Made by a program: the position numbers and the translations under genes. This document shows, piece by piece, positions 36,292 through 53,762 of a stretch of DNA of 64,000 bases (within the stretch, counting starts at the first letter, position 1; every line of letters begins with the position of its first letter). The notes under the pieces are model-generated. The model had not been told where the DNA came from, did not search any database, and saw only the letters and a program-made list of their open reading frames with translations. This DNA comes from an uncultured virus (IMG/VR IMGVR_UViG_3300009169_000002). Taxonomy: Duplodnaviria; Heunggongvirae; Uroviricota; Caudoviricetes. The DNA lies in IMG/VR virus record IMGVR_UViG_3300009169_000002; one strand, written 5' to 3'.

Positions 36292-36627
36292 TCAGTTTGC
36301 CGCGTGGCTGTTTGCGCGCCAGCGGTAGTATTGGATGCGTGCTGTGTTGATATTCCAATGCCGACGCTTAGCTAGGCGCCGAATCTCTTCCAGCGATGGG
36401 GCAGCACCCTGTTCGCGGCTTACCTTGTCCAAGGTGTCCCAAATTTTGGCACACCGTCCGCCCTTCACCGGGCGGGAGAACTTGGAACCGCTTTGGTCTT
36501 CCGGAGCAGGCGCTTCACCAGACGCGATCGCGTTGTGAACTGCGCCAAAAACAATCTCCGCCAAGGGCGCTTGCAGTGCTTCAAGAACACGCTTGCTGAT
36601 TGATTGCTCTAAGTTAGAACCAACCAT
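36292..36627 (-). CDS. putative DNA-binding protein (paralog 1 of 4)
   Basis: RP..GG.C..IWDTLD..AP..WNINTARIQYYRWR; RBS AAGGAG; promoter TTGCTT-N17-TAAGCT at 36706-36678. Confidence 0.7.
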   Translation of the reverse strand: MVGSNLEQSISKRVLEALQAPLAEIVFGAVHNAIASGEAPAPEDQSGSKFSRPVKGGRCAKIWDTLDKVSREQGAAPSLEEIRRLAKRRHWNINTARIQYYRWRANSHAAN

Positions 36628-36725
36628 TAGGAACTCCTTTTCTAGATCGCCATGCAGACGGCTTGTCTGCAATACAAAGCTTATGCGTGAGTGCATATAA
36701 AAGCAAGCCCTTACAATGAGTGCTT

Positions 36726-38744
36726 TTACCCTTCCGTGTAGCCAATCTCCCGGAGGATTTTTGTGGCTTCTGCGATATACCAGTCGTAATCCACATCGTC
36801 AGGAAGTTGGGCAGGCAGTTGCATGAGCGGCTTCGCTCCGTCGCTGCGTGGCACCTTGTTCCCGCTGCTGGCGTAAACCATCTCGCCCTCGTTGTCGGTG
36901 CTGTAATACCAACGAATTGAGGCGCCGAGGTATACGCCGTTCTTGACTGCTCCGCCCTTCACCTTGCGCACGCTCACGAACTTGCGGACGTCGGTGCAAG
37001 CGCGAATGGTGTCCGTCACGGGGATGTTCTTAGTTAGCAGCATCTCCACCGCGTCGATGCAGACTGTGGACTTCGGATTCATATGCAAGCGAAAGATTGC
37101 TTGCTTTGGGTCGTTCCATGGATTGTTGTACGCACCCTTGGACTTCACGCCGACCTTGCCGTCCTTGTCCGGCACCTTGACCGCGATGTAGTTATTCACG
37201 TCACGCGAATAATATGCAGCGTACTCGGTTTCCTCTGTCTGGAACCCCGTGTCGCGTTCCCATTGGTGGATGACCCGTTCCATGCTGTCGCGCTGCGCAC
37301 GCTCGCATTTGATGACCACACCGTCCGTATTCGCCGACACGACCTGCACACCGCTGAGCTCCAGGCGCTCGATAAGCATCAGCAGCGCGAGTTGCCCGGT
37401 GACGGTAACCTGTACTAGCAGGTCCGGGGAGTACAGGATGCTGTACTTGCTTCCGAGCTTGCCGAACGAACCGTTCACCACGATCTTCAACGTGTCTGCC
37501 ACCACGCGCATGCCTGCGGACTTAGCAGCAACACGACGGTTCACGATGTTGCTGTACACGCGCAAGAACTGCGGCCCGAGGTGGTGCGGGTACAGTTGCT
37601 GATTCAAAATGATTTGAGGGTAGTATGACGTCACGTCGCGGTCGACAATGCAATGCGTTGTCCCTGCAACGTGCGCGATTGTGGTCTCGGAACTGTGCAG
37701 TCCACCGATGCCCATGCGGTACACGTTCCCACCGATGCGCAGGTGCAGCGCACCGACCTCCGGGGGCATGCCTACCGACCCGTGATGCTCTACGACGAAC
37801 CAGGCGTTCCGCACGACCTCGAGCGCCCACTGCATCAACGGGGACTCGTACTTCAAAAACGAAGGCACCTTGTAGCGGTACGAGGTGCCGGGCTCGATGA
37901 CAGGCTTGCCCGGGCGGCTGCCGTCCAGCCGGTGGAGCTCGTTCGAAATAACCGCTTCCGCGATTTGTGCATCCGACCTCGAGCGAAGGTCGATGTCGTA
38001 CTCGCGCCCCAAGCTCTCACGGAGTTCAACCTGTTCGGTAAGCGACTCGAGGAGGAACCCTGTCTGCATGAGGTCGTTGACGTTGTACCATCGCACGATC
38101 GCCATCTGGTCGGGCGACAGCGTTGCCTCATGGTGAAAGGGCAAGTCCTGCATGCGAGGCGTGTGCAACCGTCCACCGTAAATCTTCAAGCTCGCGGTGA
38201 GCGGTGCTACTTCAATGAGGTCGATGTGGTCAATGTTTTTGAGTGCGCGCACCTTGTTCTGCTTCAGCACGTCGGTCGCACGCCACTCCTCTTGGATGAT
38301 GCGGTTGGTGGCAGTCTTGATCTGTTCGGTGTTCTTGCCGGCAAGCGCAAGCGCTGCCATAGGCAGGTCGTATCCGTAGCTGTTGAAGCCAACGAGGGTG
38401 AAGCTGCGCATTATCCACTCGAGCTTCGCGCGCTCCGCTAGCTCTTGCCCGGAGGACATTTCAAAGTAGACGATCGCGCCGGTGGTGTACGACGCGAAGC
38501 TGATGAGGAAGTAATTCCAATATGACTCCACATCGAACAGCAGCTTGTCCCGGCGCAGGCGTGCTTCCGCGAGCTCGGGGTCGCTCATCACATGCACGTT
38601 GAAGCGCAGCGCGTCTTCCAAGCCGGGCAGGTAGTCCGAGCGTAACCACACGGGTTCCGGTGGCGTGCGCTTGGGTGCAGCCTCCTTGACCGCTTTGACG
38701 ATTGGTTCGTCGCGCCACCACAAGCCTAGAGCGTCTGCTCTCAC
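36726..38744 (-). CDS. family-B DNA polymerase with exonuclease domain
   Basis: FDVE, GFNSYGYD; DVTSYYP, KIVVNGSFGK, SANTDG. Confidence 0.92.
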   Translation of the reverse strand: MRADALGLWWRDEPIVKAVKEAAPKRTPPEPVWLRSDYLPGLEDALRFNVHVMSDPELAEARLRRDKLLFDVESYWNYFLISFASYTTGAIVYFEMSSGQELAERAKLEWIMRSFTLVGFNSYGYDLPMAALALAGKNTEQIKTATNRIIQEEWRATDVLKQNKVRALKNIDHIDLIEVAPLTASLKIYGGRLHTPRMQDLPFHHEATLSPDQMAIVRWYNVNDLMQTGFLLESLTEQVELRESLGREYDIDLRSRSDAQIAEAVISNELHRLDGSRPGKPVIEPGTSYRYKVPSFLKYESPLMQWALEVVRNAWFVVEHHGSVGMPPEVGALHLRIGGNVYRMGIGGLHSSETTIAHVAGTTHCIVDRDVTSYYPQIILNQQLYPHHLGPQFLRVYSNIVNRRVAAKSAGMRVVADTLKIVVNGSFGKLGSKYSILYSPDLLVQVTVTGQLALLMLIERLELSGVQVVSANTDGVVIKCERAQRDSMERVIHQWERDTGFQTEETEYAAYYSRDVNNYIAVKVPDKDGKVGVKSKGAYNNPWNDPKQAIFRLHMNPKSTVCIDAVEMLLTKNIPVTDTIRACTDVRKFVSVRKVKGGAVKNGVYLGASIRWYYSTDNEGEMVYASSGNKVPRSDGAKPLMQLPAQLPDDVDYDWYIAEATKILREIGYTEG

Positions 38745-39724
38745 ATCCGCATTCCTACAAGCGCACCACGCAAGCGCTCCCCGTAGAACACGCTTGGGGC
38801 AGGGTACGTGCTGAAGTCGATGTGCGTTGCGACGTTGCGCAGTAGCATGAGCATTTCGATATTATAGATGCCTTCACACTCGAGGCCTGGTATCTCGAAG
38901 CGTGCGCCTTCATCCTCTTTTTCGCCGGGTGCAGTGCGTAGCGTACCACTTCCAATAAACACGCGCCCTGCCTTGTCTACGAACCGCTTCAGCTTTTCCA
39001 GCCCGTCGAATATGCGCTTGTCGATCGCGGTAGCGTTGTCGCTGTTGGCAAACAGCTTGCCGATGTCCGGCCACTCCAGACCGAGAAGCTGGCTGCGAAT
39101 CCAGCGCTTGTCGGTGTAGTGGAACGTCACCGAGTTTTCGGTGACTTGTGCATGCGTCGGAGGCTCGTTGATGCGCAGCATCTCCGCAACCGCTGCGCGA
39201 GGGATGTTAATCTCGACTGGCATGGTTGCTTCGGTCCAGTATTCGACCGCGACAACGTTGTTCGTTGCGAACACGCTTTGACCGCGCATCAGCACACCGT
39301 TGCACCACTGGCGCGAAGCGTCGTCGCCGATGAACGGCTGCACCACTTTCAGCGCACGGAGCACAGTCTCCCCGTCGAAGTCCACACGCTCACCCTCGGG
39401 TTGTACGTGCGGGGTTTCCTCGGCAATGCAGTCGACAAACGCTTTGAACTGACCGCAAGCAATGCGCAAGCGACCTGCTGGCGTCATTGCGAGTTGGATG
39501 GGGTAGTCGTGCCCGTTCTCGTCGGTGTCCGTGCATTGCGCGATCGCGTTGACCAGTGCGGCGGCCTTGGGTTTGCAGTCAATGTTGAAAGCAATCGGCG
39601 CGCACAGGGCGAGCGAACCGTTGTACGCTCGCACAGCACCGTCCTCGATAACGAAGTGCGTCATTGCAGGCATGAAGTCTTTCTTGGCGACTGCACCCTG
39701 TACGAACCGCAATTCCTTCAGCAT
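38741..39724 (-). CDS. beta-clamp-like processivity factor
   Basis: Next to polymerase; ends PSVFYGERLRGALVGMR. Confidence 0.75.
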   Translation of the reverse strand: MLKELRFVQGAVAKKDFMPAMTHFVIEDGAVRAYNGSLALCAPIAFNIDCKPKAAALVNAIAQCTDTDENGHDYPIQLAMTPAGRLRIACGQFKAFVDCIAEETPHVQPEGERVDFDGETVLRALKVVQPFIGDDASRQWCNGVLMRGQSVFATNNVVAVEYWTEATMPVEINIPRAAVAEMLRINEPPTHAQVTENSVTFHYTDKRWIRSQLLGLEWPDIGKLFANSDNATAIDKRIFDGLEKLKRFVDKAGRVFIGSGTLRTAPGEKEDEGARFEIPGLECEGIYNIEMLMLLRNVATHIDFSTYPAPSVFYGERLRGALVGMRM

Positions 39725-40659
39725 TAGAAAAGCTCCTGCACGCGCGCACGAAAGACTTCGCTGTGCGATGCGTTGATCATTGTGTTTATCACGCCGAATG
39801 CCCACAGGTTGTAAGCTGCCCGGGCCTCGTAGACAGTGCTCAGCCGTTCATACGTGAAGCCTTGCTTCTCAAGCATGCGGAACAGGTATTCAGTCTCGAG
39901 CGGCGTCAGTGTGGTTATGTGCTGTCCGGCGTCGTGCCTGCTTGGGCTTGAGCTCGACACCTTGATGGGTCCGTGCTCTGGTGTCATGACGCTACCGAAC
40001 GCAGCAGCTTGAATCCACGACGACGAGTCGCACGAATACCACGGGTAAGCTTCCATGAGCGGCACGGACGTCATACCGAACCCGTGTACCTTGACGCGCG
40101 CACGACCGCTGCCGTCCGTTAGATACTTCTCCCATATACGGTCGAGCCACACTTCCAGCTGAGCAGCGCTTGTGCCGACCATGCCACCGAGTGTGATGTA
40201 GTCGTAGTTCGCGACGTAGTATTCGAGCGCAGCTTCGGGTTCACCCTTGTGGAAGCAAGGCAGAGGGCGCACGCCACGCTCCTCCATCTCGAGTTGGTTG
40301 CGGTACGTTCCCTCCGCGGACGCTGCGTTGCCACCGATGCTGTCCAGCACCGACGCCATAAGCGCACCGTCCTCAACGCGCAGGATGTCCATGTTGCGCT
40401 TGATATACTCGCAGTAATCATACACGGTGAGCTTGACGCCCAACGTCCACGCAGAGAACGCGCCGGAGTCCAGAAAGATTTGCGCCTGCTCGCGGCGCAT
40501 GTCGTCAACGTACTTCTGCTTCCCGACGTAGTGCCATGATTCAAGGAGGTGCGGCAACTCGTGGACGATGTTTTTCTCGTGGTCGTTCAGCTTCTCGTAA
40601 CGGCTACCCTGCCCTCGCATGTAACCGTTCGAGTAAACCGCAGCGGTGTAGATGTGCAT
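39724..40659 (-). CDS. dpdA: DpdA-like (TGT-fold) 7-deazaguanine DNA transglycosylase
   Basis: FLDSGAFS, PCFH.GE, LGGMV, VHGFG, SCDSSSW; follows folE-queD-queC-queE. Confidence 0.8.
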   Translation of the reverse strand: MHIYTAAVYSNGYMRGQGSRYEKLNDHEKNIVHELPHLLESWHYVGKQKYVDDMRREQAQIFLDSGAFSAWTLGVKLTVYDYCEYIKRNMDILRVEDGALMASVLDSIGGNAASAEGTYRNQLEMEERGVRPLPCFHKGEPEAALEYYVANYDYITLGGMVGTSAAQLEVWLDRIWEKYLTDGSGRARVKVHGFGMTSVPLMEAYPWYSCDSSSWIQAAAFGSVMTPEHGPIKVSSSSPSRHDAGQHITTLTPLETEYLFRMLEKQGFTYERLSTVYEARAAYNLWAFGVINTMINASHSEVFRARVQELF

Positions 40660-40681: not shown

Positions 40682-41578
40682 TTACACCAAGCGCAGGAAC
40701 TCCGCACGAGCACTTGCGTCCGTCTTAATGACGCCGCGGACCGCTGTGGTTATCGTGTGGTGCCCCTGTTGGCACACGCCACGCGACTCCATGCACAGGT
40801 GACGCGCCTTCATGATGACACCGACACCGAGCGGGTTCAGGTGCTCATGCAGCGCGTCTGCGATCTGGTCCGTCATGCGCTCCTGCACTTGCAAGCGACG
40901 TGCGAACACGTCCGCAAGGCGCGAGAGCTTGCTGAGCCCGACAATCTTACCGTTCGGGATGTAGCTGATGGTGACCGTGCCGAAAATGGGTGCGAGGTGG
41001 TGCTCGCAGTGCGAGTAGACCGGGATGTCCTTCACGGTGATCATCTGGTCGTGCTTCTCCGCACCGTCCTCGAATACCTTGAGGATGGTAGCAGGGTCGA
41101 CGCTGTACCCGCTGCACCAATGCTTCCAGGCTTTCGCCACTCGCGTCGGTGTTTCGTGCAAGCCACCGCGCGTCGGATCTTCGCCGACAAACTGGAGGAG
41201 CCTGACCACATTGTCCTCGAAGGAACTGAACTCGTTGCCCTCCCACGGGAACACGATCCAACGCTTGTGGAACTGCCCGGGCTTGCGCTTGTCGAGCAGA
41301 GCGTGGAAGGGTACGTGCGGGTATTCCTTGGTCCACTTCCGTTCGGTGGAGCCGCTGTCAATCAAGTCATCGATGATGACTTGCGCTTGCGCGGGATCGT
41401 CCACCATTTGCAGTTCGCAGTATTGCCCAACCGCAAGCGCTGCGGAGATGCCACCGCGCGGCACACCGAAAGCACGGAGTGAGGTGTAACCAGACTCATC
41501 CATCTGGTCCACGAGCTTGTGAGCAAGCGCAAATGCAAGCTCGCTCAGCGTCTGCTGAGTAATGTGTAACTTCGACAC
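40682..41578 (-). CDS. folE: type I phosphoribosyltransferase fused to GTP cyclohydrolase I
   Basis: N-terminal GVPRGG, VIIDDLIDSGST, WIVFPWE; C-terminal ETPTRV, SHCEHHL, GLSKLSR, RLQVQERMT, HLCMESRG. Confidence 0.92.
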   Translation of the reverse strand: MSKLHITQQTLSELAFALAHKLVDQMDESGYTSLRAFGVPRGGISAALAVGQYCELQMVDDPAQAQVIIDDLIDSGSTERKWTKEYPHVPFHALLDKRKPGQFHKRWIVFPWEGNEFSSFEDNVVRLLQFVGEDPTRGGLHETPTRVAKAWKHWCSGYSVDPATILKVFEDGAEKHDQMITVKDIPVYSHCEHHLAPIFGTVTISYIPNGKIVGLSKLSRLADVFARRLQVQERMTDQIADALHEHLNPLGVGVIMKARHLCMESRGVCQQGHHTITTAVRGVIKTDASARAEFLRLV

Positions 41579-41581
41579 GGG

Positions 41582-42016
41582 TCACCTCGAGTACGATGCG
41601 GAGCACTTGCGCGTCTCTTCGATCACGCAAGAAATAAGACGGATGCCTGTACCTTGGAGTTGACCCGGGCCAACGACGTTGACCAGATACTCCGCCATGT
41701 TTTCGGCAGTGGGGTTGAACGGTACGCCGACAACACCCGCTGCGTCAATTTTCATGAGCCCGTGGAGCATAGGGTCATGCATCCAGATGAGCATCTTGTG
41801 GTCCCACTCGTGCTCGACCCACATGCAGAGCAGTTCCTTGATCGCAGTGAAATCGATAACGCGACCGATGTTGTCGAGCGCGTTACTGCCCGGGACCGCT
41901 TCGCATACGAAGTGGATGCGGTAGTTATGTCCGTGCAGGTGAGCACACTTGCTCTCGTGACCGTGGACACGGTGACCGCAGCTGATGTCGTGATACCGTT
42001 GTGCGCGGTGAGCCAT
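41582..42016 (-). CDS. queD: 6-carboxytetrahydropterin synthase
   Basis: CGHR..KCAHLHGHNY; IDF; DH; NPTAEN; EET. Confidence 0.93.
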   Translation of the reverse strand: MAHRAQRYHDISCGHRVHGHESKCAHLHGHNYRIHFVCEAVPGSNALDNIGRVIDFTAIKELLCMWVEHEWDHKMLIWMHDPMLHGLMKIDAAGVVGVPFNPTAENMAEYLVNVVGPGQLQGTGIRLISCVIEETRKCSASYSR

Positions 42017-42768
42017 TACACGGCGCTCCGGACTTTGTCGTAATTCTTGGTCTTGGGCAGGCCCATGAGCCCTTCACTCACCGCACGTATAACAAGCGGG
42101 TCTGGCTCGCCAGCATCCAAGAAGCCTTGCGCGCGGAGCACGTTTGCGTGATTCTTGTCGGTCGGCGGATACTTGCCGTCATAGCTCGTGTGGCTGTACG
42201 CCAGCGCCTCCCAACAGCCCGGAAGGGTTTTGGCCAGCTTCACCGTGTCCGCCTTGCTCTTGTACATGAGCGGGGCGCGGAGGTGCAGCTCGTAGTTCCC
42301 GAGCGACAGGGTGAATGCTTCCTCTATCGCACGCCGGTATTCCTCGGTGCAATCCGGATAATTCGCATTGTCTTCCTGACAGATACCTGTTACGAGGTCG
42401 TGGCATTCAAGCGCGACCGCACGGTTGGCAGCAATGGTGAAGAACAACGTATTGCGCATCGGCACGAACGTGAGCTCGACACGGTTGCCGATAACCTTGT
42501 CCATCTGCTGGAACGTGTCGTATCGCTCGAGGTCGTTGCTGCTCGTCAGCGGGGACGTGCTGCGCAGGCAGTCCGGGACACGAACAACCTCGTGAGTCAG
42601 CACGCCTGCCATCGCAGCGACTTTACGCGCGGCGTCCAACTCTAGCACATGACGCTGACCATAGTCAAACGTAATGGCGTGCAGGTTGGGAGTCAGGTTG
42701 TGCTTAGCCCAGAACAAGCACGTTGTCGAGTCCTGTCCGCCTGACAGAACCACTAGAGCTTTTTTCAT
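42016..42768 (-). CDS. queC: 7-cyano-7-deazaguanine synthase lacking C-terminal Zn cysteines
   Basis: SGGQDSTTC, FDYGQRH..EL, FVPMRN, YPDC, PLMYKSK. Confidence 0.92.
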   Translation of the reverse strand: MKKALVVLSGGQDSTTCLFWAKHNLTPNLHAITFDYGQRHVLELDAARKVAAMAGVLTHEVVRVPDCLRSTSPLTSSNDLERYDTFQQMDKVIGNRVELTFVPMRNTLFFTIAANRAVALECHDLVTGICQEDNANYPDCTEEYRRAIEEAFTLSLGNYELHLRAPLMYKSKADTVKLAKTLPGCWEALAYSHTSYDGKYPPTDKNHANVLRAQGFLDAGEPDPLVIRAVSEGLMGLPKTKNYDKVRSAV

Positions 42769-43490
42769 TACAGCACCCCGAGAAGCTTGTGAAGTTGGAT
42801 TTGAAGAATGTATCCGTGCTCCATACACGAATCCATGCATGCGCGCAAGTGCCTTGCATTGTCTTCCACGTTCTGCTCGTCCATCGGTTGCAGGTACACG
42901 GGACGACGAAAAGCAACGGGCGGACGCGCTACACGAGGCGCCGCACTGTGGTCAAGAGCCAGCACGGGCAACCCGTCGCGCGGGTCTACGCTGTCCGCGC
43001 TCATGACGTACTTGTAACAGCACGCGGCGTCTATGGTCGCGGGGTGGACTGCCCCGGTCTTGGGGCTACATACCACAAACGCACCCCGACGGCTCGAAGT
43101 ATTCGTGTGGATGTACTGCATCGCGTTGATGGGCGGGGGAAGCGTGCCGTTCGTCTCAATCTGGACATAGTACGCTTCAGCGCACAGAGCACCGATTAGC
43201 GCGCCGATGTCCTGCCGGAAGGGTTCGCCCCCGGTTATGACCACAAGTCCCGGTACACGGTTCGACGCGAGCTTTACGAGGTTGACAACGTGCTCCACTG
43301 TGCAGTCGGTTCGACCGGACGTGTAGTCGGTGTCACAGGCCGGGCATTGCAGGTTGCACCCGGCAAGACGGATAAATACAGCGGGGGTTCCGCAGAACGG
43401 GCCTTCGCCCTGAATGGTGTCAAATACTGAGTAGACGGAGAGGTGCGATTGGTGTACACGCTTCTCCGGTGCTTGCTGATTCAGCTGCAT
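42768..43490 (-). CDS. queE: 7-carboxy-7-deazaguanine synthase (radical SAM)
   Basis: TIQGEG, GCNLQCPACDT, TGGEP, IETNG, SPK, QLHK. Confidence 0.95.
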   Translation of the reverse strand: MQLNQQAPEKRVHQSHLSVYSVFDTIQGEGPFCGTPAVFIRLAGCNLQCPACDTDYTSGRTDCTVEHVVNLVKLASNRVPGLVVITGGEPFRQDIGALIGALCAEAYYVQIETNGTLPPPINAMQYIHTNTSSRRGAFVVCSPKTGAVHPATIDAACCYKYVMSADSVDPRDGLPVLALDHSAAPRVARPPVAFRRPVYLQPMDEQNVEDNARHLRACMDSCMEHGYILQIQLHKLLGVL

Positions 43491-43567: not shown

Positions 43568-44002
43568 TTACGCTGCGCTCGCGGTTGCCGGCTTCTCCGA
43601 ACGGCCCGTGACGCCGTTGAACTTCCGCCACTTGGCGTACTGCGTCCGCACGGTCGCTTCCGCCATGCCCGGGGCGCGCTTGATCGCGTCACCGATGACG
43701 GCAGGGGCGCCCGTCTCGCGGCTCAGGGCATCGAAGATGTCCCAGGCGTTGCCGGTCGTGGTGCCAGCCTTCGGGCGCGTCACGCCGTTCTGGGACGGCT
43801 GCTTCGCGCTTTCCTTCGCAGCTTCCTTGGCGGCCTTCGCGTCAGCCTTGGCCTGGACCTTCGCGTCGGCCTTCGCCTTGCGCTCCGCGTCCTTGGCTTC
43901 CTTCGCGGCAGCCTTCTCGGCAGCCTTCGCAGCCGCAGCCGCAGCCTTCGCGGCAGCTTTCTCTTCCGCCGTCGGTTCGGCGGCCTTGGTCTCTTCGGTC
44001 AT
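43568..44002 (-). CDS. Ala/Lys-rich putative DNA-binding protein (paralog 2)
   Basis: AK-rich N-terminus; QNGVTRPK.G..WDIFD..TVRTQYAKWRKFNG. Confidence 0.8.
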   Translation of the reverse strand: MTEETKAAEPTAEEKAAAKAAAAAAKAAEKAAAKEAKDAERKAKADAKVQAKADAKAAKEAAKESAKQPSQNGVTRPKAGTTTGNAWDIFDALSRETGAPAVIGDAIKRAPGMAEATVRTQYAKWRKFNGVTGRSEKPATASAA

Positions 44003-44092
44003 TTCGTCTCTCCTCGGTTAAAAAATCTGGATCACTAACCCATCATTCGGGCTCTGGAGCATACTAGCCTGTCCTCTGCGTGTCCGCAATCC

Positions 44093-44824
44093 CTAGGACA
44101 AACTATTTGCCTTGCGCCACGCTGCACCCTGCACGCTCACCGTGTTGGGGTTCCATCCGTGCTGTACCGCGAGCTCTTTAATCCGGGCTCGGGACGGTGC
44201 GGCACCGTTGTTGATTGTTCGCTCCGCGTCGAGGGTTGCCCAGATTTGCTGGCATACCCCACTTTTCGGACGTGCTGCTGTCGCTGCCCTGCGCGGTGCG
44301 TGCGCTGCGCTGCGCTTGGGTGCGGCTTCGGTAGCGGCTGCGGCGGCTGCGTGCTGTTGCCCACGCTGTAGCGAGCGCGCAGTGTGCTTCTGCACCGTTG
44401 CCGCAACCTCGGCAGCAGTGGGGGCAGGTAGCGGGTCGCTGAACAGCGTCACCTCCTGCCACTTGGGAACGGACGACCCGGCAACGTACGAGTATCCAGG
44501 CTTCCCGTCGGCGCTCTTGCGCTCGAGCCACTCCGCTTGTGCTTCCGCTTCAGCGGGGTCCGCAGCGCTGACCGGGAACCGTTCAGTGAGGTCCGCCAGC
44601 ACCATGCGCAGCGAGTGGCTGATTGCGGGGACGTGGTCCGCGTGCGTGGCGTGCTTGTACAGCAGCGCGAGCTCTTGGTCCGTGAAGTCCTTGAACAGCC
44701 CTGGATCATCCGTCAGACCGAGCGTGGTCTGCTTGTGCGCGATGAAGTCCAAGTTCGCAACACACCGATAGTCGGCATGCTTGTGAAGGAACTGCATCTT
44801 GTCCATGTCGATTGAAATGTACAT
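44093..44824 (-). CDS. protein with the same C-terminal domain (paralog 3)
   Basis: RPKSGVCQQIWATLD..APS..WNPNTVSVQ..WRK. Confidence 0.75.
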   Translation of the reverse strand: MYISIDMDKMQFLHKHADYRCVANLDFIAHKQTTLGLTDDPGLFKDFTDQELALLYKHATHADHVPAISHSLRMVLADLTERFPVSAADPAEAEAQAEWLERKSADGKPGYSYVAGSSVPKWQEVTLFSDPLPAPTAAEVAATVQKHTARSLQRGQQHAAAAAATEAAPKRSAAHAPRRAATAARPKSGVCQQIWATLDAERTINNGAAPSRARIKELAVQHGWNPNTVSVQGAAWRKANSLS

Positions 44825-44895
44825 GGCGGAACTTTAGCCCATGGTTCGTTTAGAAGCAAGAGGGAGGGGAGGGTATTTCTACCCTCCCCGGCAGG

Positions 44896-45378
44896 TCACT
44901 CCGCACCTTCCTCGTCGGCTTCCGGGGCGGCGACGACCACACCGTTGAACTGCTTCCAGCGCTGATACTGCGTGTAAGCCGTGTTCCGCTGCCAGCTGTT
45001 GGCGCGCATGAGGTCGCGGACCACTTCGAACGTCGGGACCGACTTGCTGCTGACCCGGACCGCATCGAGCGCGTCCCAGATTTCGCGGCAGATCGAACCG
45101 AGCGACGGCTTGGTGACGCCGTTCTGCTTGGGGCGACCCTTTTCGATCTTGAGCGACTTCTGCACCACCACTTCGCCGGCCGTCTTGGCGCGGATGCTGT
45201 GGGTCGGCTTCGGCTGCGGGGCCGGTGCGGGCTCCGACTTGACTGCGGGGGTCTGCACCACTTCGAGGGCGGCCAGCGCAGCGCGCATGCCGTCGTTGTT
45301 GAGGTTGCCGTACTTGACGCCAGCGGCCTTGCAGGCAGCGCGGAGTTCGACCTTACCCATTTCGTTGAAGTTCGTCAT
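44896..45378 (-). CDS. HEH/Rho-N-like domain plus the same C-terminal domain (paralog 4)
   Basis: EMGKVELRAACKAAGVKYGNL; QNGVTKP..ICREIWDALD..NTAYTQYQRWKQFNG; promoter TTGACG-N17-TAGTAT. Confidence 0.75.
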   Translation of the reverse strand: MTNFNEMGKVELRAACKAAGVKYGNLNNDGMRAALAALEVVQTPAVKSEPAPAPQPKPTHSIRAKTAGEVVVQKSLKIEKGRPKQNGVTKPSLGSICREIWDALDAVRVSSKSVPTFEVVRDLMRANSWQRNTAYTQYQRWKQFNGVVVAAPEADEEGAE

Positions 45379-45527
45379 GTTCCTAATCTCCTGTTTCTGC
45401 GTTGGTGGACCGCAATGCGCTGTCCATGTGTGAATACTAGACGCCTCCCGATCCTGCGTCAACACCTTTTTCAACTATTTTAGGCGGATTGAGCTAAGTG
45501 GCTGATTTTATTCAGATTATAGTTGGT

Positions 45528-48340: not shown

Positions 48341-49138
48341 TTACGAGCGCGGCTGCTGCCACGGAGGAACTGCGCCCTGCGCCGGGTGTGCCGGCTGCGG
48401 AGGCGTCGGTGCGGCAGCGGGTGCGGCACCCTGCTGCGGGGGCTGCGCCTGCCAGGCTTGACCACCGTTCGGCGGCGTCCACGGACCGGGAGCGGGTCCA
48501 GGGCCTGCCTCGGGTGCTGCGGGTGCTGCGGCCCACGGCTGAGCGGCTGCCGGAGGTGCCCAAGCACCCTGTGGCGGCTGCTGCGGTGCTGCCTGCGGTG
48601 CAGGAGGAGCACCCCACTGCTGAGCAGGGGCAACCGGCGGCGGCGCACCCCAACCCGCAGGCGCTGCGGCAGGGGGAGGCGGATACGCGCCCGGCTGCGG
48701 GTACGCAGCGGGAGCAGCGGCGACCGCGGAACTGCCAACGACCTCGTTGACGTTCTTGTACGAGGTGACCTCATTGTTGTCCTCGTACTCGCCGTCACCC
48801 TTCCGCAGCTTGACCTTCAGCTGGAGCGGGATGCCGTGGAGCTGCGAGCTGTCCGCGACCTGCAACACGCCGACAGCGTGGGCAATCGCGCTGAGCTGCT
48901 TGAACCCGATCTCCTGCGCGACAGCGTTCGCGTTGCGCAGGTTGAGGCGCGTGAACAGCTTCCGTCCCATGTAGGGACCGTCGATGATGGTGAAGCGGCA
49001 GTTCAAGTAGGCGCCGTCGCCAGCCTTGGTGGGCTTCATTTCCGATTCGTCCATCACCGCCTTGTACCAACCTGCCGGCACGGGGTCGAACCCGATGTCG
49101 TGCGGGACGTTGGTTGCGTCGAAATTCAGCTGAGCCAT
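48341..49138 (-). CDS. single-stranded DNA-binding protein (DUF669-type)
   Basis: FDPVPAGWY..GRKLF.RLNL.N.N..A; Pro/Ala/Gln tail ending PPW. Confidence 0.85.
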   Translation of the reverse strand: MAQLNFDATNVPHDIGFDPVPAGWYKAVMDESEMKPTKAGDGAYLNCRFTIIDGPYMGRKLFTRLNLRNANAVAQEIGFKQLSAIAHAVGVLQVADSSQLHGIPLQLKVKLRKGDGEYEDNNEVTSYKNVNEVVGSSAVAAAPAAYPQPGAYPPPPAAAPAGWGAPPPVAPAQQWGAPPAPQAAPQQPPQGAWAPPAAAQPWAAAPAAPEAGPGPAPGPWTPPNGGQAWQAQPPQQGAAPAAAPTPPQPAHPAQGAVPPWQQPRS

Positions 49139-49150
49139 GTTGTCTCCTGT

Positions 49151-49987
49151 TTACCTTGTGAACACATCGATTCCGCTTGACTGATGCAGCACGCCTGCAA
49201 GCGTGTTCCAACCATTCGCCGGGGGCGCTGGAATCGTGTATTCCCCCGTGATGCCAAACCTGTTGCCTGCAATATAGCCCGGCGTCCGCGAGAAGCCAAG
49301 GACTCGTCCCTTGTTCTGCGAGACTGCCTTGACCATACCTTCCGCTTTGCTAACGAAGACGGGTTCGTACAGGAAGCCGACGATGTCCGCCCACTGCGTG
49401 ATGCGTTCGCGCTTGCCGTACGTTTTCTGATTCTTGGGGGAGTGCAGCAGCAAGTCCCACGAGTCGTATTCACCGGACGTCGGGTCCATTACTTTGGACG
49501 CGAATACGTGGCACGTTATCACGATGTTGATGCCTGCATACACAGCGAGCGAGTCGCACATTTGCAGGAACTGGTCGAACTCCTCGTTGGCGAGGTTGTA
49601 CGCTTTGCCGTAGCCACCGTGGGCGCTTTCCATGGTGATGACTTTCTTGCTGCCCGGACGGTACGCAGGGTCACGCCGAATTATAGCGTCGTGGATGGAG
49701 CGCTCGAGTGCAGTACCGCTGTCGAATATGATTGTGCGGTAGGCGAACTGACCGCGCTGTGCAGCCTGCGTCACCTCCGCCATGAACTGCAAGAGTTCTT
49801 CCCACGTCTGAAGCATCGGTGTCTTGGCGACGTTCACGCCACCGAACCCAACCTCGAGCGGGACAAGCAACGCGCCCGGAGCACCGGCGCACAGGGTTGT
49901 CTTGCCCATTTTTTCTTGACCTGCGACGACGATGCGGAGGCCGCTACGTGTCACGCCAGTTGAAACCGATCCGAGGATGCTGCTCAT
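49151..49987 (-). CDS. Sak4-like ATPase (AAA_24)
   Basis: GQEKMGKTT; IIFDS; GGYGKAY; WAD; AGNRFG; next to SSB. Confidence 0.85.
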   Translation of the reverse strand: MSSILGSVSTGVTRSGLRIVVAGQEKMGKTTLCAGAPGALLVPLEVGFGGVNVAKTPMLQTWEELLQFMAEVTQAAQRGQFAYRTIIFDSGTALERSIHDAIIRRDPAYRPGSKKVITMESAHGGYGKAYNLANEEFDQFLQMCDSLAVYAGINIVITCHVFASKVMDPTSGEYDSWDLLLHSPKNQKTYGKRERITQWADIVGFLYEPVFVSKAEGMVKAVSQNKGRVLGFSRTPGYIAGNRFGITGEYTIPAPPANGWNTLAGVLHQSSGIDVFTR

Positions 49988-52728: not shown

Positions 52729-53151
52729 TCACGTCGCAGCTTTCGCCGGCAGCACAATCTCGAGCGACGGGGTTTCCGACGGCTTGACGATCAAGCACTG
52801 GTCGAACAACCGCGTCTGTTCCGTCGTGAGCTTGCGGTACTCGCGCACAGCGAGCTCGGGCTTGCGCACGATGAGCGAGTCGACTGCAATGTGCTGCTCG
52901 CGGAACGAGGGCGCGAGTGTGGTCAACGCTGCCTCGTCCACCTTGCGTTCAATCTTGTACGTGGCCTTCAGCGCATACCCGTCCGGGAGCGTGAACGTGT
53001 TGGTGCCTTCGCTCGGTGTTGGGAAGTAGTGACCGAAAATCTTCTTCCGCAGCAGCACCTCGCTCGCTTTGAGCTTCGCCAAGTCCTCGTGCATCTTGTA
53101 CCAGGCCATCAGGTCGTTGATGGTGACGGGGTTGTCGGGGAGTTGGGTCAT
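52729..53151 (-). CDS. hypothetical replication-region protein
   Basis: 140 aa in operon. Confidence 0.7.
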   Translation of the reverse strand: MTQLPDNPVTINDLMAWYKMHEDLAKLKASEVLLRKKIFGHYFPTPSEGTNTFTLPDGYALKATYKIERKVDEAALTTLAPSFREQHIAVDSLIVRKPELAVREYRKLTTEQTRLFDQCLIVKPSETPSLEIVLPAKAAT

Positions 53152-53762
53152 TTCGTTTTCTCCACCGTAACAGTGAAGCCTGGGAGGTGTATTACGATCG
53201 GGTCCATCGGCGCGTCTGATGACTGCGGACCTCCTTTTGCAATTGCTTCCAGGATTGCGGAAGCGGGGAGCGAGCCCACAACCTCGCGCTCGATGGGTTC
53301 AATTGGTTCGGGCTGTCCGAAGAACTTGCGCTCGATGCCCGGCGCCTTGTCCGCTTGTGCGTGCGCCTGTGCGTCGCTGTACTTGCCGTCAGCGTAGCGC
53401 TTGCGCAGCTTCAGCACGTTCTGCGCGACCACCTCGTCGTCGGTGATGTCCAGCATGTTGAGCAGCGCTTGGTAATAGAAGCGCAGGTCACCGAGCTCCT
53501 CGATGAGGTGCGCGATGTTCAGCGGCTTATTGTTTGCCCACACTTTCTTGGACAGGTCGAGCAGTTCGCCTGCTTCACCTGCGATGCCCGTGCAAGCGTG
53601 GTGCATTTCGTCCGCCACTGTGGGCATCTCTTTCATGAGGTGCATCACGAACTCGTGGTACTCGGGCAGCACTTCCTTCGCCATGGAGATACCGACGTCT
53701 TCAGCGTCGAGCTCCAAACGGTTATGCACTTCGGCCGGGACTTGGATCTTAAATTTCGCCAT
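53148..53762 (-). CDS. mazG: MazG-like nucleotide pyrophosphohydrolase
   Basis: GIAGEAGELLD..KK..EELGDL..N..KLRKRY. Confidence 0.88.
   Translation of the reverse strand: MAKFKIQVPAEVHNRLELDAEDVGISMAKEVLPEYHEFVMHLMKEMPTVADEMHHACTGIAGEAGELLDLSKKVWANNKPLNIAHLIEELGDLRFYYQALLNMLDITDDEVVAQNVLKLRKRYADGKYSDAQAHAQADKAPGIERKFFGQPEPIEPIEREVVGSLPASAILEAIAKGGPQSSDAPMDPIVIHLPGFTVTVEKTK

Follow-up and report, generated by a model that had tools for sequence, protein, structure and literature searches.

The locus described here raises the question of what a phosphoribosyltransferase (PRTase)-like domain does when it is fused to GTP cyclohydrolase I (FolE) inside a phage DNA-modification cluster. The phage deazaguanine pathway is drawn as FolE, QueD, QueE and QueC plus DpdA, and in this scheme the guanine excised from DNA is unaccounted for. 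Below, "the window" means the whole 64,000-nt stretch of viral DNA that was analysed.

The fusion gene lies in a preQ0-DpdA modification cluster

The window looks like a siphophage genome: its plus strand carries the terminase, portal, tape-measure and tail genes, and its minus strand a replication block. Pfam and PHROG matches revealed a phage preQ0-DpdA modification cluster in this minus-strand block, in the order queE, queC, queD, fusion gene, dpdA, clamp and polymerase:

42768..43490, minus: queE (phrog_2076, E 6e-54)
42016..42768, minus: short queC without the glutamine amidotransferase domain, which predicts preQ0 (PF06508, E 8e-47)
41582..42016, minus: queD (PF01242 and phrog_2389)
41584..41588, minus: GAGGT ribosome-binding site, overlapping the queD stop (sequence)
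40682..41578, minus: PRTase-FolE fusion gene, 298 aa (ORF list, Pfam; AlphaFold2 mean pLDDT 96)
41240..41578, minus: predicted Gpt-like mini-phosphoribosyltransferase domain, residues 1-113 (profile, fold, weak NF006613 match)
41450..41467, minus: GVPRGG, loop I (pyrophosphate loop), residues 38-43 (phage-fusion alignment)
41381..41404, minus: short connector, residues 59-66, at the place of XGPRT loop II (alignment gap against E. coli XGPRT)
41345..41371, minus: DDLIDSGST, PRPP/5′-phosphate loop, residues 70-78 (phage-fusion alignment)
41240..41260, minus: WIVFPWE, base-binding hood, residues 107-113 (phage-fusion alignment)
41189..41233, minus: first FolE helix with the PRTase-linked Arg126 (comparison of fused and unfused FolEs)
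40688..41218, minus: GTP cyclohydrolase I (FolE) domain, catalytic motifs intact (PF01227, E 1e-69, 234 bits)
39724..40656, minus: dpdA, DNA guanine transglycosylase of the same family as that of phage NP1 (phrog_887, E 3e-86)
38741..39724, minus: sliding-clamp-like processivity factor (phrog_947)
36726..38744, minus: DNA polymerase (phrog_1252)

The fusion ORF starts with GTG and is followed by a DpdA1-type dpdA. Its FolE part (residues 121-297) retains the CEHH, GLSK, QVQER and HLC motifs, and in the model this half superimposes on solved FolEs with an rmsd of 1.3-1.5. It thus has the T-fold and the zinc- and GTP-binding motifs of GTP cyclohydrolase IA. A preliminary description of this DNA had noted the three N-terminal motifs in frame with an intact FolE, and all of them were found as described. 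Existing labels gave no hint of the first domain: a cluster look-up of 10 relatives returned one name only, 'GTP cyclohydrolase I', and the ESM Atlas gave only 'hypothetical' viral clusters (0.86-0.90).

The arrangement queE-queC-queD-folE-dpdA with clamp and polymerase has been described for Queuovirinae (PMC10484667, in the text available to us), and CAjan, iggy, 9g and NP1 have this same order beside clamp and polymerase genes. Compared with the described cluster, the window has an extra PRTase domain on FolE, which is absent from close relatives such as the cultured phage MiCath.

Some other genes of the window were also recorded. A MazG-like pyrophosphatase (53148..53762, minus) is encoded 11.5 kb away from the cluster, flanked by RNase H and primase. 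A DUF669 protein is encoded beside an AAA_24 ATPase (48341..49987, minus), a pairing presented as the 'Healer' anti-CRISPR repair system in the available part of PMC13687109. Four small genes (36292..36696 and 43568..45474, minus) share a C-terminal WNxNT...QY..W-type motif and match the same PHROGs of unknown function (17772, 21588, 18634 and 11298). They form a paralogous family on either side of the modification cluster.

The N-terminal domain resembles xanthine-guanine PRTases

Searches with single sequences lacked the power to place the N-terminal domain: alone, it had no Pfam match, its best PDB match had an E-value of 0.4, and its PHROG match was phrog_8995 (E 3e-6). A profile of 65 relatives, searched against the PDB, aligned to xanthine-guanine PRTases over their residues 1-140 (E 1.8e-10 to 2.6e-9). 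The domain model (pLDDT 93.9) had E. coli XGPRT as its top Foldseek match (E 7e-7). In a VIA search, XGPRT again came first (Z 11.9, rmsd 5.7, 115 aligned residues), tied with Sulfolobus HGXPRT (11.2) and a ppGpp-bound Neisseria PRT (5vog, 11.1), and the top 16 rows were all PRT-fold proteins (Z 8.0-11.9). NF006613, the Gpt/XGPRT equivalog model, was matched at 27.9 bits (E 1.5e-6), well below its curated cut-off of 138 bits; 48 of the 65 family members matched it weakly, with a best E-value of 9e-10.

We counted conservation over 126 distinct phage fusions, 124 of which cover the PRPP loop. The core fold of type I PRTases is present in the domain, and the PRPP-binding motif (hydrophobic-DD-xx-D-[ST]-G-x-T) was found in 124/124 rows, with D70, D71, D74, S75, G76 and T78 each invariant. 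Loop I was nearly as constant (P40 124/124, R41 118/124, G43 124/124), as was the hood (W107 125/126, P111 126/126, E113 126/126), and K97 was conserved in 113/126. On the FolE side, C191, H193, S216, E233 and H260 were each present in 126/126. Conservation of motifs in both halves indicates that both are under selection.

D70, D71, D74, S75, G76, T78, K97 and E113 align to XGPRT D88, D89, D92, T93, G94, T96, K115 and D140, and W107 aligns to W134. We take XGPRT D88, D89, D92, T96, K115, W134 and D140 to be residues that bind PRPP and the 6-oxopurine. Accordingly, equivalents of the 6-oxopurine pocket (K115, W134, D92 and D140) are kept. E. coli Gpt/XGPRT (NF006613; 1a95, 4jls) shares with the domain the fold, the N-terminal strand and helix, the RGG loop, the DDxxDxGxT loop, the K115 equivalent and the WxxxPW[DE] hood. 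The domain differs from it in having no loop II and in being fused to a FolE with a conserved Arg on its helix. Judged by sequence profile and structural model, residues 1-113 form a phosphoribosyltransferase domain of the Gpt-like (xanthine-guanine) type, and the xanthine/guanine PRTase-like assignment made earlier from the motifs holds.

We also considered whether the domain could be a degenerate relic, as the preliminary description had allowed. The active-site motifs are invariant at 30-50% identity and the model is confident, so this was ruled out.

A possible role in guanine salvage

What substrate might such a domain use? According to the available text of PMC10164549, DpdA works through a covalent intermediate when it replaces G by preQ0, and the bacterial DpdA/B also inserts free [14C]guanine into DNA. 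We propose that the domain is a minimal 6-oxopurine PRTase that salvages the guanine released by DpdA; from sequence and model, we give this a little better than an even chance. In the proposed mechanism, DpdA would replace G by preQ0 in phage DNA after its replication and free one guanine per site. From this guanine and PRPP the domain would make GMP, which host kinases would take back to GTP, and the attached FolE uses GTP as its substrate. The phage would presumably benefit in two ways: free guanine, which DpdA-type enzymes can reinsert in place of preQ0, would be cleared, and the GTP spent on each preQ0 would be refunded. Two host kinases stand between GMP and GTP, so the fusion would mean co-expression rather than channelling.

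With 37,694 G on both strands, an assumed replacement of 16-25% and an assumed burst of 50-100, we estimated a release of 0.5-1.6 mM per femtolitre. The closest families by profile and by fold are guanine/xanthine PRTases, which argues for salvage, and free-standing Gpt-like PRTases occur in all three phage groups for which 100% replacement was measured, in which the guanine load would be highest. Against salvage, loop II is absent and the domain is dispensable, being missing beside 33 of the 69 closest FolEs. Hosts also usually own an Hpt or a Gpt.

Loop II is missing and an arginine on FolE accompanies the domain

Precisely where E. coli XGPRT has loop II, the domain lacks about 22 residues, a difference not mentioned in the preliminary description, and a further 10 residues are missing ahead of the hood. 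From the RGG loop to DD, the spacing is 24-46 residues (median 30), compared with 52 in E. coli XGPRT, and the domain model contains no long loop at this place. Therefore, the flexible catalytic loop II that characterizes type I PRTases is not present. [quoted passage not shown] Thus, PRTase activity, predicted from the retained PRPP and base motifs, is not assured.

Arg126, on the first FolE helix, was found in 33 of 34 scoreable fused FolEs and in none of 15 scoreable unfused ones (20 of the 69 sequences could not be scored). It was also invariant in all 42 short forms that keep only the FolE-like helix. In the salvage reading, catalysis would run without loop II, and Arg126 may stand in for an arginine of this loop.

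The missing loop also suggests a non-catalytic nucleotide-binding domain, an option absent from the preliminary description. In such a case, catalysis would have been lost with loop II and the domain would sense a ligand (GMP, PRPP or (p)ppGpp), tuning FolE against the drain on GTP in the manner of PyrR/PurR. The loop is missing across the whole family, 127 of the 134 domains listed (see below) sit on FolE, the committed GTP-consuming step, and Arg126 co-varies with the domain. In addition, the ppGpp-bound Neisseria protein ties for the best fold match, and an HPRT from which loop II had been deleted retained pppGpp binding (PMC6783271, from the same partial text). Similar to the domain, PyrR/PurR regulators have the PRT fold near a nucleotide pathway. 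However, PyrR (Z 9.4) was less similar than Gpt, and no RNA- or DNA-binding element was seen in the domain. A sensor is also hard to reconcile with a base-binding hood and a catalytic aspartate position that stay invariant, with the phages in which the domain is a separate gene, and with bacterial copies whose own FolE has lost its catalytic residues while the domain is kept, unless it acts in trans on a separate FolE. On balance, we think it unlikely that the domain is a sensor of this kind.

Distribution among phages

The N-terminal 114 residues matched 38 GenBank phage records, and 34 of them continue into FolE, corresponding to 25 phages after RefSeq duplicates were dropped. Carriers include Pseudomonas NP1, PaMx25, Quinobequin-P09 and JG012, Vibrio VpKK5 and Sphingomonas MMDA13, of which NP1, PaMx25, Quinobequin-P09 and MMDA13 are cultured fusion-bearing phages. 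Among the 34 records, 31 are annotated as GTP cyclohydrolase only and three have no annotation. A phmmer search gave 516 cluster representatives at E 0.001 or better. FolE was also matched in 51 of the best 150, and the remainder contained many fragments or short forms that look complete.

Three scans of viral contigs, in which the best 80 of 600 pattern matches were kept, gave at least 177 loci, 176 of them with the domain and at least 134 distinct; all counts that follow are among the matches listed. The domain was fused to FolE in 127 of the 134 distinct cases, and two of the seven others look like frameshifted fusions. The sample favours fused forms because queries A2 and A3 held the FolE-like helix, and with FolE matched in only 51 of the best 150 phmmer hits, the ratio of 127 to 7 overstates fusion. 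The PRTase-FolE fusion is real and widespread. An assembly artefact, a concern raised in the preliminary description, is ruled out by the 34 GenBank records and the 127 distinct viral fusions listed.

The preliminary description had also suggested a survey of PRTase-folE-dpdA co-occurrence. We found dpdA in 118 of the 134 distinct domain loci listed, and in 14 of the 16 without it the contig ends at most 2.6 kb away. One of the loci without a dpdA match (L012) has the fusion together with a DpdA3-like ORF (E 2e-4) and a ribonucleotide reductase. It is the only one of the 134 with a reductase nearby. Overall, 130 of the 134 distinct domains adjoin que genes or dpdA, and three fused exceptions lie at contig ends. 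Co-occurrence of the domain with dpdA cannot be separated from its co-occurrence with que genes. Several gene orders were present, and the domain was a separate gene within the cluster in L018, L021-L023, L161 and the immuto phage.

Starting from FolE instead, 36 of the 69 closest distinct FolEs were fused and 33 had no domain in the locus, so the domain is accessory. Among these 33 domain-less loci, 32 still have dpdA. In a FolE tree built without the first helix, the fused or unfused state changes 14 times, and at least four changes are forced by well-supported branches. No substitute guanine-salvage enzyme was found in the clusters lacking the domain among 66 of 92 ORFs, a set in which mainly clamp-sized and overlapping ORFs were left out. 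We tried to link the domain to QueC type, and no such link emerged (fused, 10 long and 23 short; unfused, 5 long and 26 short; 5 without QueC in view).

The patchy presence of the domain might also mean that it is a general purine-salvage gene, which draws more GTP from the breakdown of host RNA and DNA and sits on folE as the main GTP sink, and that it is not tied specifically to the guanine that DpdA frees. Jumbo Pseudomonas phages and a cyanophage carry Gpt-like genes too, and one locus (L075) carries the domain without que genes or dpdA. The near-constant neighbourhood of que genes or dpdA, with only contig-end exceptions among the fused domains, makes a general role very improbable in our view.

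Some variants were noted during the survey. Fusions of about 580 aa (L043:6983-8731, P0078 and P0115) have a FolE match split near FolE residue 75 by an insert of roughly 280 aa, possibly an intein. In P0002, P0009, P0013 and P0061 the domain is followed by a different tail (…IVGTITNR…), similar to the start of another FolE type. The PRT gene at L161:6905-7342 lies directly before a separate folE and may be a second, independent fusion or a split. Genes resembling nucleoside 2-deoxyribosyltransferases were present in que/dpdA clusters (L300:5484-5885, L321:5916-6329, L294:6422-6814 and L312:6108-6500); such enzymes are raised as a possible unseen route in the available text of PMC6884629. YdjM-like membrane protein genes occur in clusters L278, L280, L286, L295 and L251 (between queC and queD), and other clusters have the Vut_1/YhhQ transporter.

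Bacterial copies persist without a working FolE partner

A scan of genomes gave nine loci. Four were ordinary full-length Gpt-like genes or weak matches, one (L179) was a short contig with que genes, and four were on Dehalococcoidia chromosomes, amid unrelated metabolic genes. The Dehalococcoidia fusions have a decayed FolE half:

L178:6872-7777, L180:6959-7927, L182:6923-7840 and L222-L228: fusions with decayed FolE half

Among eight fused bacterial copies, the PRT core motifs were complete in 8/8, while FolE H193 was kept in 1/8, S216 in 1/8 and H260 in 2/8; the copy in L181 stops after the helices. Across the class, 8 carriers were found in 151 genomes, and the family had 4 among 121. In an unrooted tree with long branches, built from assembled genomes, the bacterial copies cluster together beside phage contig L012 and therefore count as one event. 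It appears that the Dehalococcoidia fusion was captured once from a phage.

A separate canonical folE was present in all four carrier genomes checked. In family searches of five carrier genomes, QueE was found in none (the control was positive in 7/14), QueC in one, as a partial match, and a QueD/PTPS-family gene in four; Gpt and Xpt were each found in 0/5. Pfam PRT matches in four carrier genomes were PyrR, PRPP synthetase, Apt, PyrE, PurF, ComF and three unassigned ORFs, and no Hpt, Gpt or Xpt was recognised among them. Thus, the bacterial domain is kept without a working FolE partner or a detectable CDG/preQ0 supply, and the lack of recognised QueE, Hpt, Gpt and Xpt in the carriers points to an ordinary purine substrate.

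In the class sample, Hpt was found in 0 of 8 carriers and in 106 of 143 other genomes. This looked like a replacement of Hpt by the domain. The carriers form one group, and their family mostly lacks Hpt (present in 13 of 121 genomes) with only 4 of 121 carrying the domain, so the non-overlap is a lineage effect and carries no independent weight.

The fold, the conserved motifs, the tight link with dpdA clusters and the bacterial copies, kept where no CDG/preQ0 pathway was detectable, support the recycling of guanine, one of two options in the preliminary description. The same copies bear on the opposite direction of catalysis. PRTase chemistry is reversible, and an active site without its lid, loop II, might strip deazaguanine nucleotides misformed by host PRTases, or cleave GMP or dGMP, thereby keeping preQ0 free for DpdA. 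Among 96 cluster ORFs scanned, four were nucleoside deoxyribosyltransferase-like, two YfbR-like and one Nudix, in line with such a function. In cells, pyrophosphatase drives salvage forward, and the bacterial copies occur where no deazaguanine pathway was detectable (QueE 0/5; QueC 1/5, partial). We consider the reverse direction highly unlikely.

Free-standing relatives and the nucleotide-level route

Three phage groups have measured complete replacement of G (table 1 of PMC10516641, partial text), and we found a free-standing Gpt-like PRTase in all three (immuto, phiST and Campylobacter Firehammervirus). The protein of Flavobacterium immuto 2-6A lacks loop II and is encoded directly before folE. 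That of Cellulophaga phiST is encoded near a reductase and keeps a segment of loop II length. Among Campylobacter phages, 15 records including CP220 have such a gene. These proteins are distant relatives (24-30% identity), connected by tblastn links and by the family profile (E 2e-20 to 4e-7). Similar to the fused domain, the PRTases of DpdA3 phages are Gpt-like with a WIVFPWE-type hood; they differ in being unfused and in belonging to phages that replace all G. They fit heavy recycling and a pre-replicative route equally well.

In Brevundimonas phage MaInes (ON529866; L242, L243), one block holds queC, queD, queE, polymerase, ribonucleotide reductase, dNMP kinase, folE and a full-loop PRTase. 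A DpdA3-like ORF of this block was read from the sequence; the DpdA profile gave no match. We regard the block as a candidate for nucleotide-level replacement of G.

The second option of the preliminary description was such a route for 7-deazaguanine, with the phage polymerase and MazG. In this case, the domain would be a deazaguanine PRTase like TubE/ToyH, and a CDG or preQ0 ribonucleotide would be reduced, phosphorylated and polymerised, besides or instead of the DpdA exchange. A precedent exists, and it is stronger than the proposed ToyH step cited in the preliminary description: in vitro, TubE converts CDG and PRPP into the CDG nucleotide (PMC6112128, available part), and TubE and ToyH, similar to our domain, are type I PRTases encoded with FolE, QueD and QueE homologues. 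Compared by description, they differ in serving ribonucleoside antibiotics and in being free-standing and longer (TubE, 194 aa). The free-standing relatives in all three complete-replacement groups, the MaInes block and the combination of fusion, reductase and DpdA3-like ORF in L012 are also in favour, and so are the ADG nucleoside reported from CP220-infected cells (cited in the accessible text of PMC10516641) and the modified-dGTP route that the available text of PMC6884629 proposes for Campylobacter phages.

However, the same text of PMC6884629 states that five known genes suffice for dPreQ0. In the window itself, the neighbouring dpdA is DpdA1-type, MazG lies far from the cluster, and no match to ribonucleotide reductase or to dNMP or TMP kinase was found among six-frame ORFs of at least 60 aa; the reductase was also nearly absent near the 134 domains listed (1/134). 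Host enzymes could supply the missing nucleotide-processing steps. The bacterial copies also persist where QueE was not found (0/5), and D74, which aligns to the N7-binding aspartate, is invariant. The precedent for the enzyme step stands, but a nucleotide-level deazaguanine route in the window phage is unlikely, and a deazaguanine substrate for the domain seems to us improbable as well.

A broader form of this proposal would make the loop-less PRTase family the entry enzyme of a pre-replicative 7-deazaguanine route to DNA. It would put CDG, ADG or preQ0 on ribose phosphate and, with or instead of DpdA3, explain the replacement of every G, and the fusion of DpdA1 phages would have the same activity at lower flux. 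We hold this to be unlikely too. DpdA3 was not reconstituted in E. coli (PMC10516641, same partial text). A missing partner enzyme may underlie this failure, and the free-standing PRTase is a concrete candidate.

An apparently undescribed variant of the pathway

The preliminary description knew of no such PRTase step in described phage Dpd pathways. In the open-access literature, as far as its text was available, we found no description of a PRTase in phage deazaguanine clusters and no measurement of dPreQ0 in virion DNA of a fusion-bearing phage. The word 'phosphoribosyl' is absent from the main texts of PMC10484667, PMC6884629, PMC10516641, PMC7472734, PMC5699537, PMC13329287 and bioRxiv 2025.02.24.639861, and its two matches in the part of the PMC10516641 supplement available are unrelated. 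One GenBank record (F379) already has the label 'purine phosphoribosyltransferase / queuosine biosynthesis protein' on a free-standing copy. Judged from its sequence, PRTase-FolE is apparently an undescribed variant of the known deazaguanine pathway, with a predicted function.

If the domain is active, it would be a natural PRTase without loop II and would put to the test the idea that catalysis requires this loop. If guanine salvage is its role, the pathway would gain a recycling step, and the base exchange a push forward, from an accessory domain that about half of the closest phage FolEs carry, concealed by the name 'GTP cyclohydrolase'.
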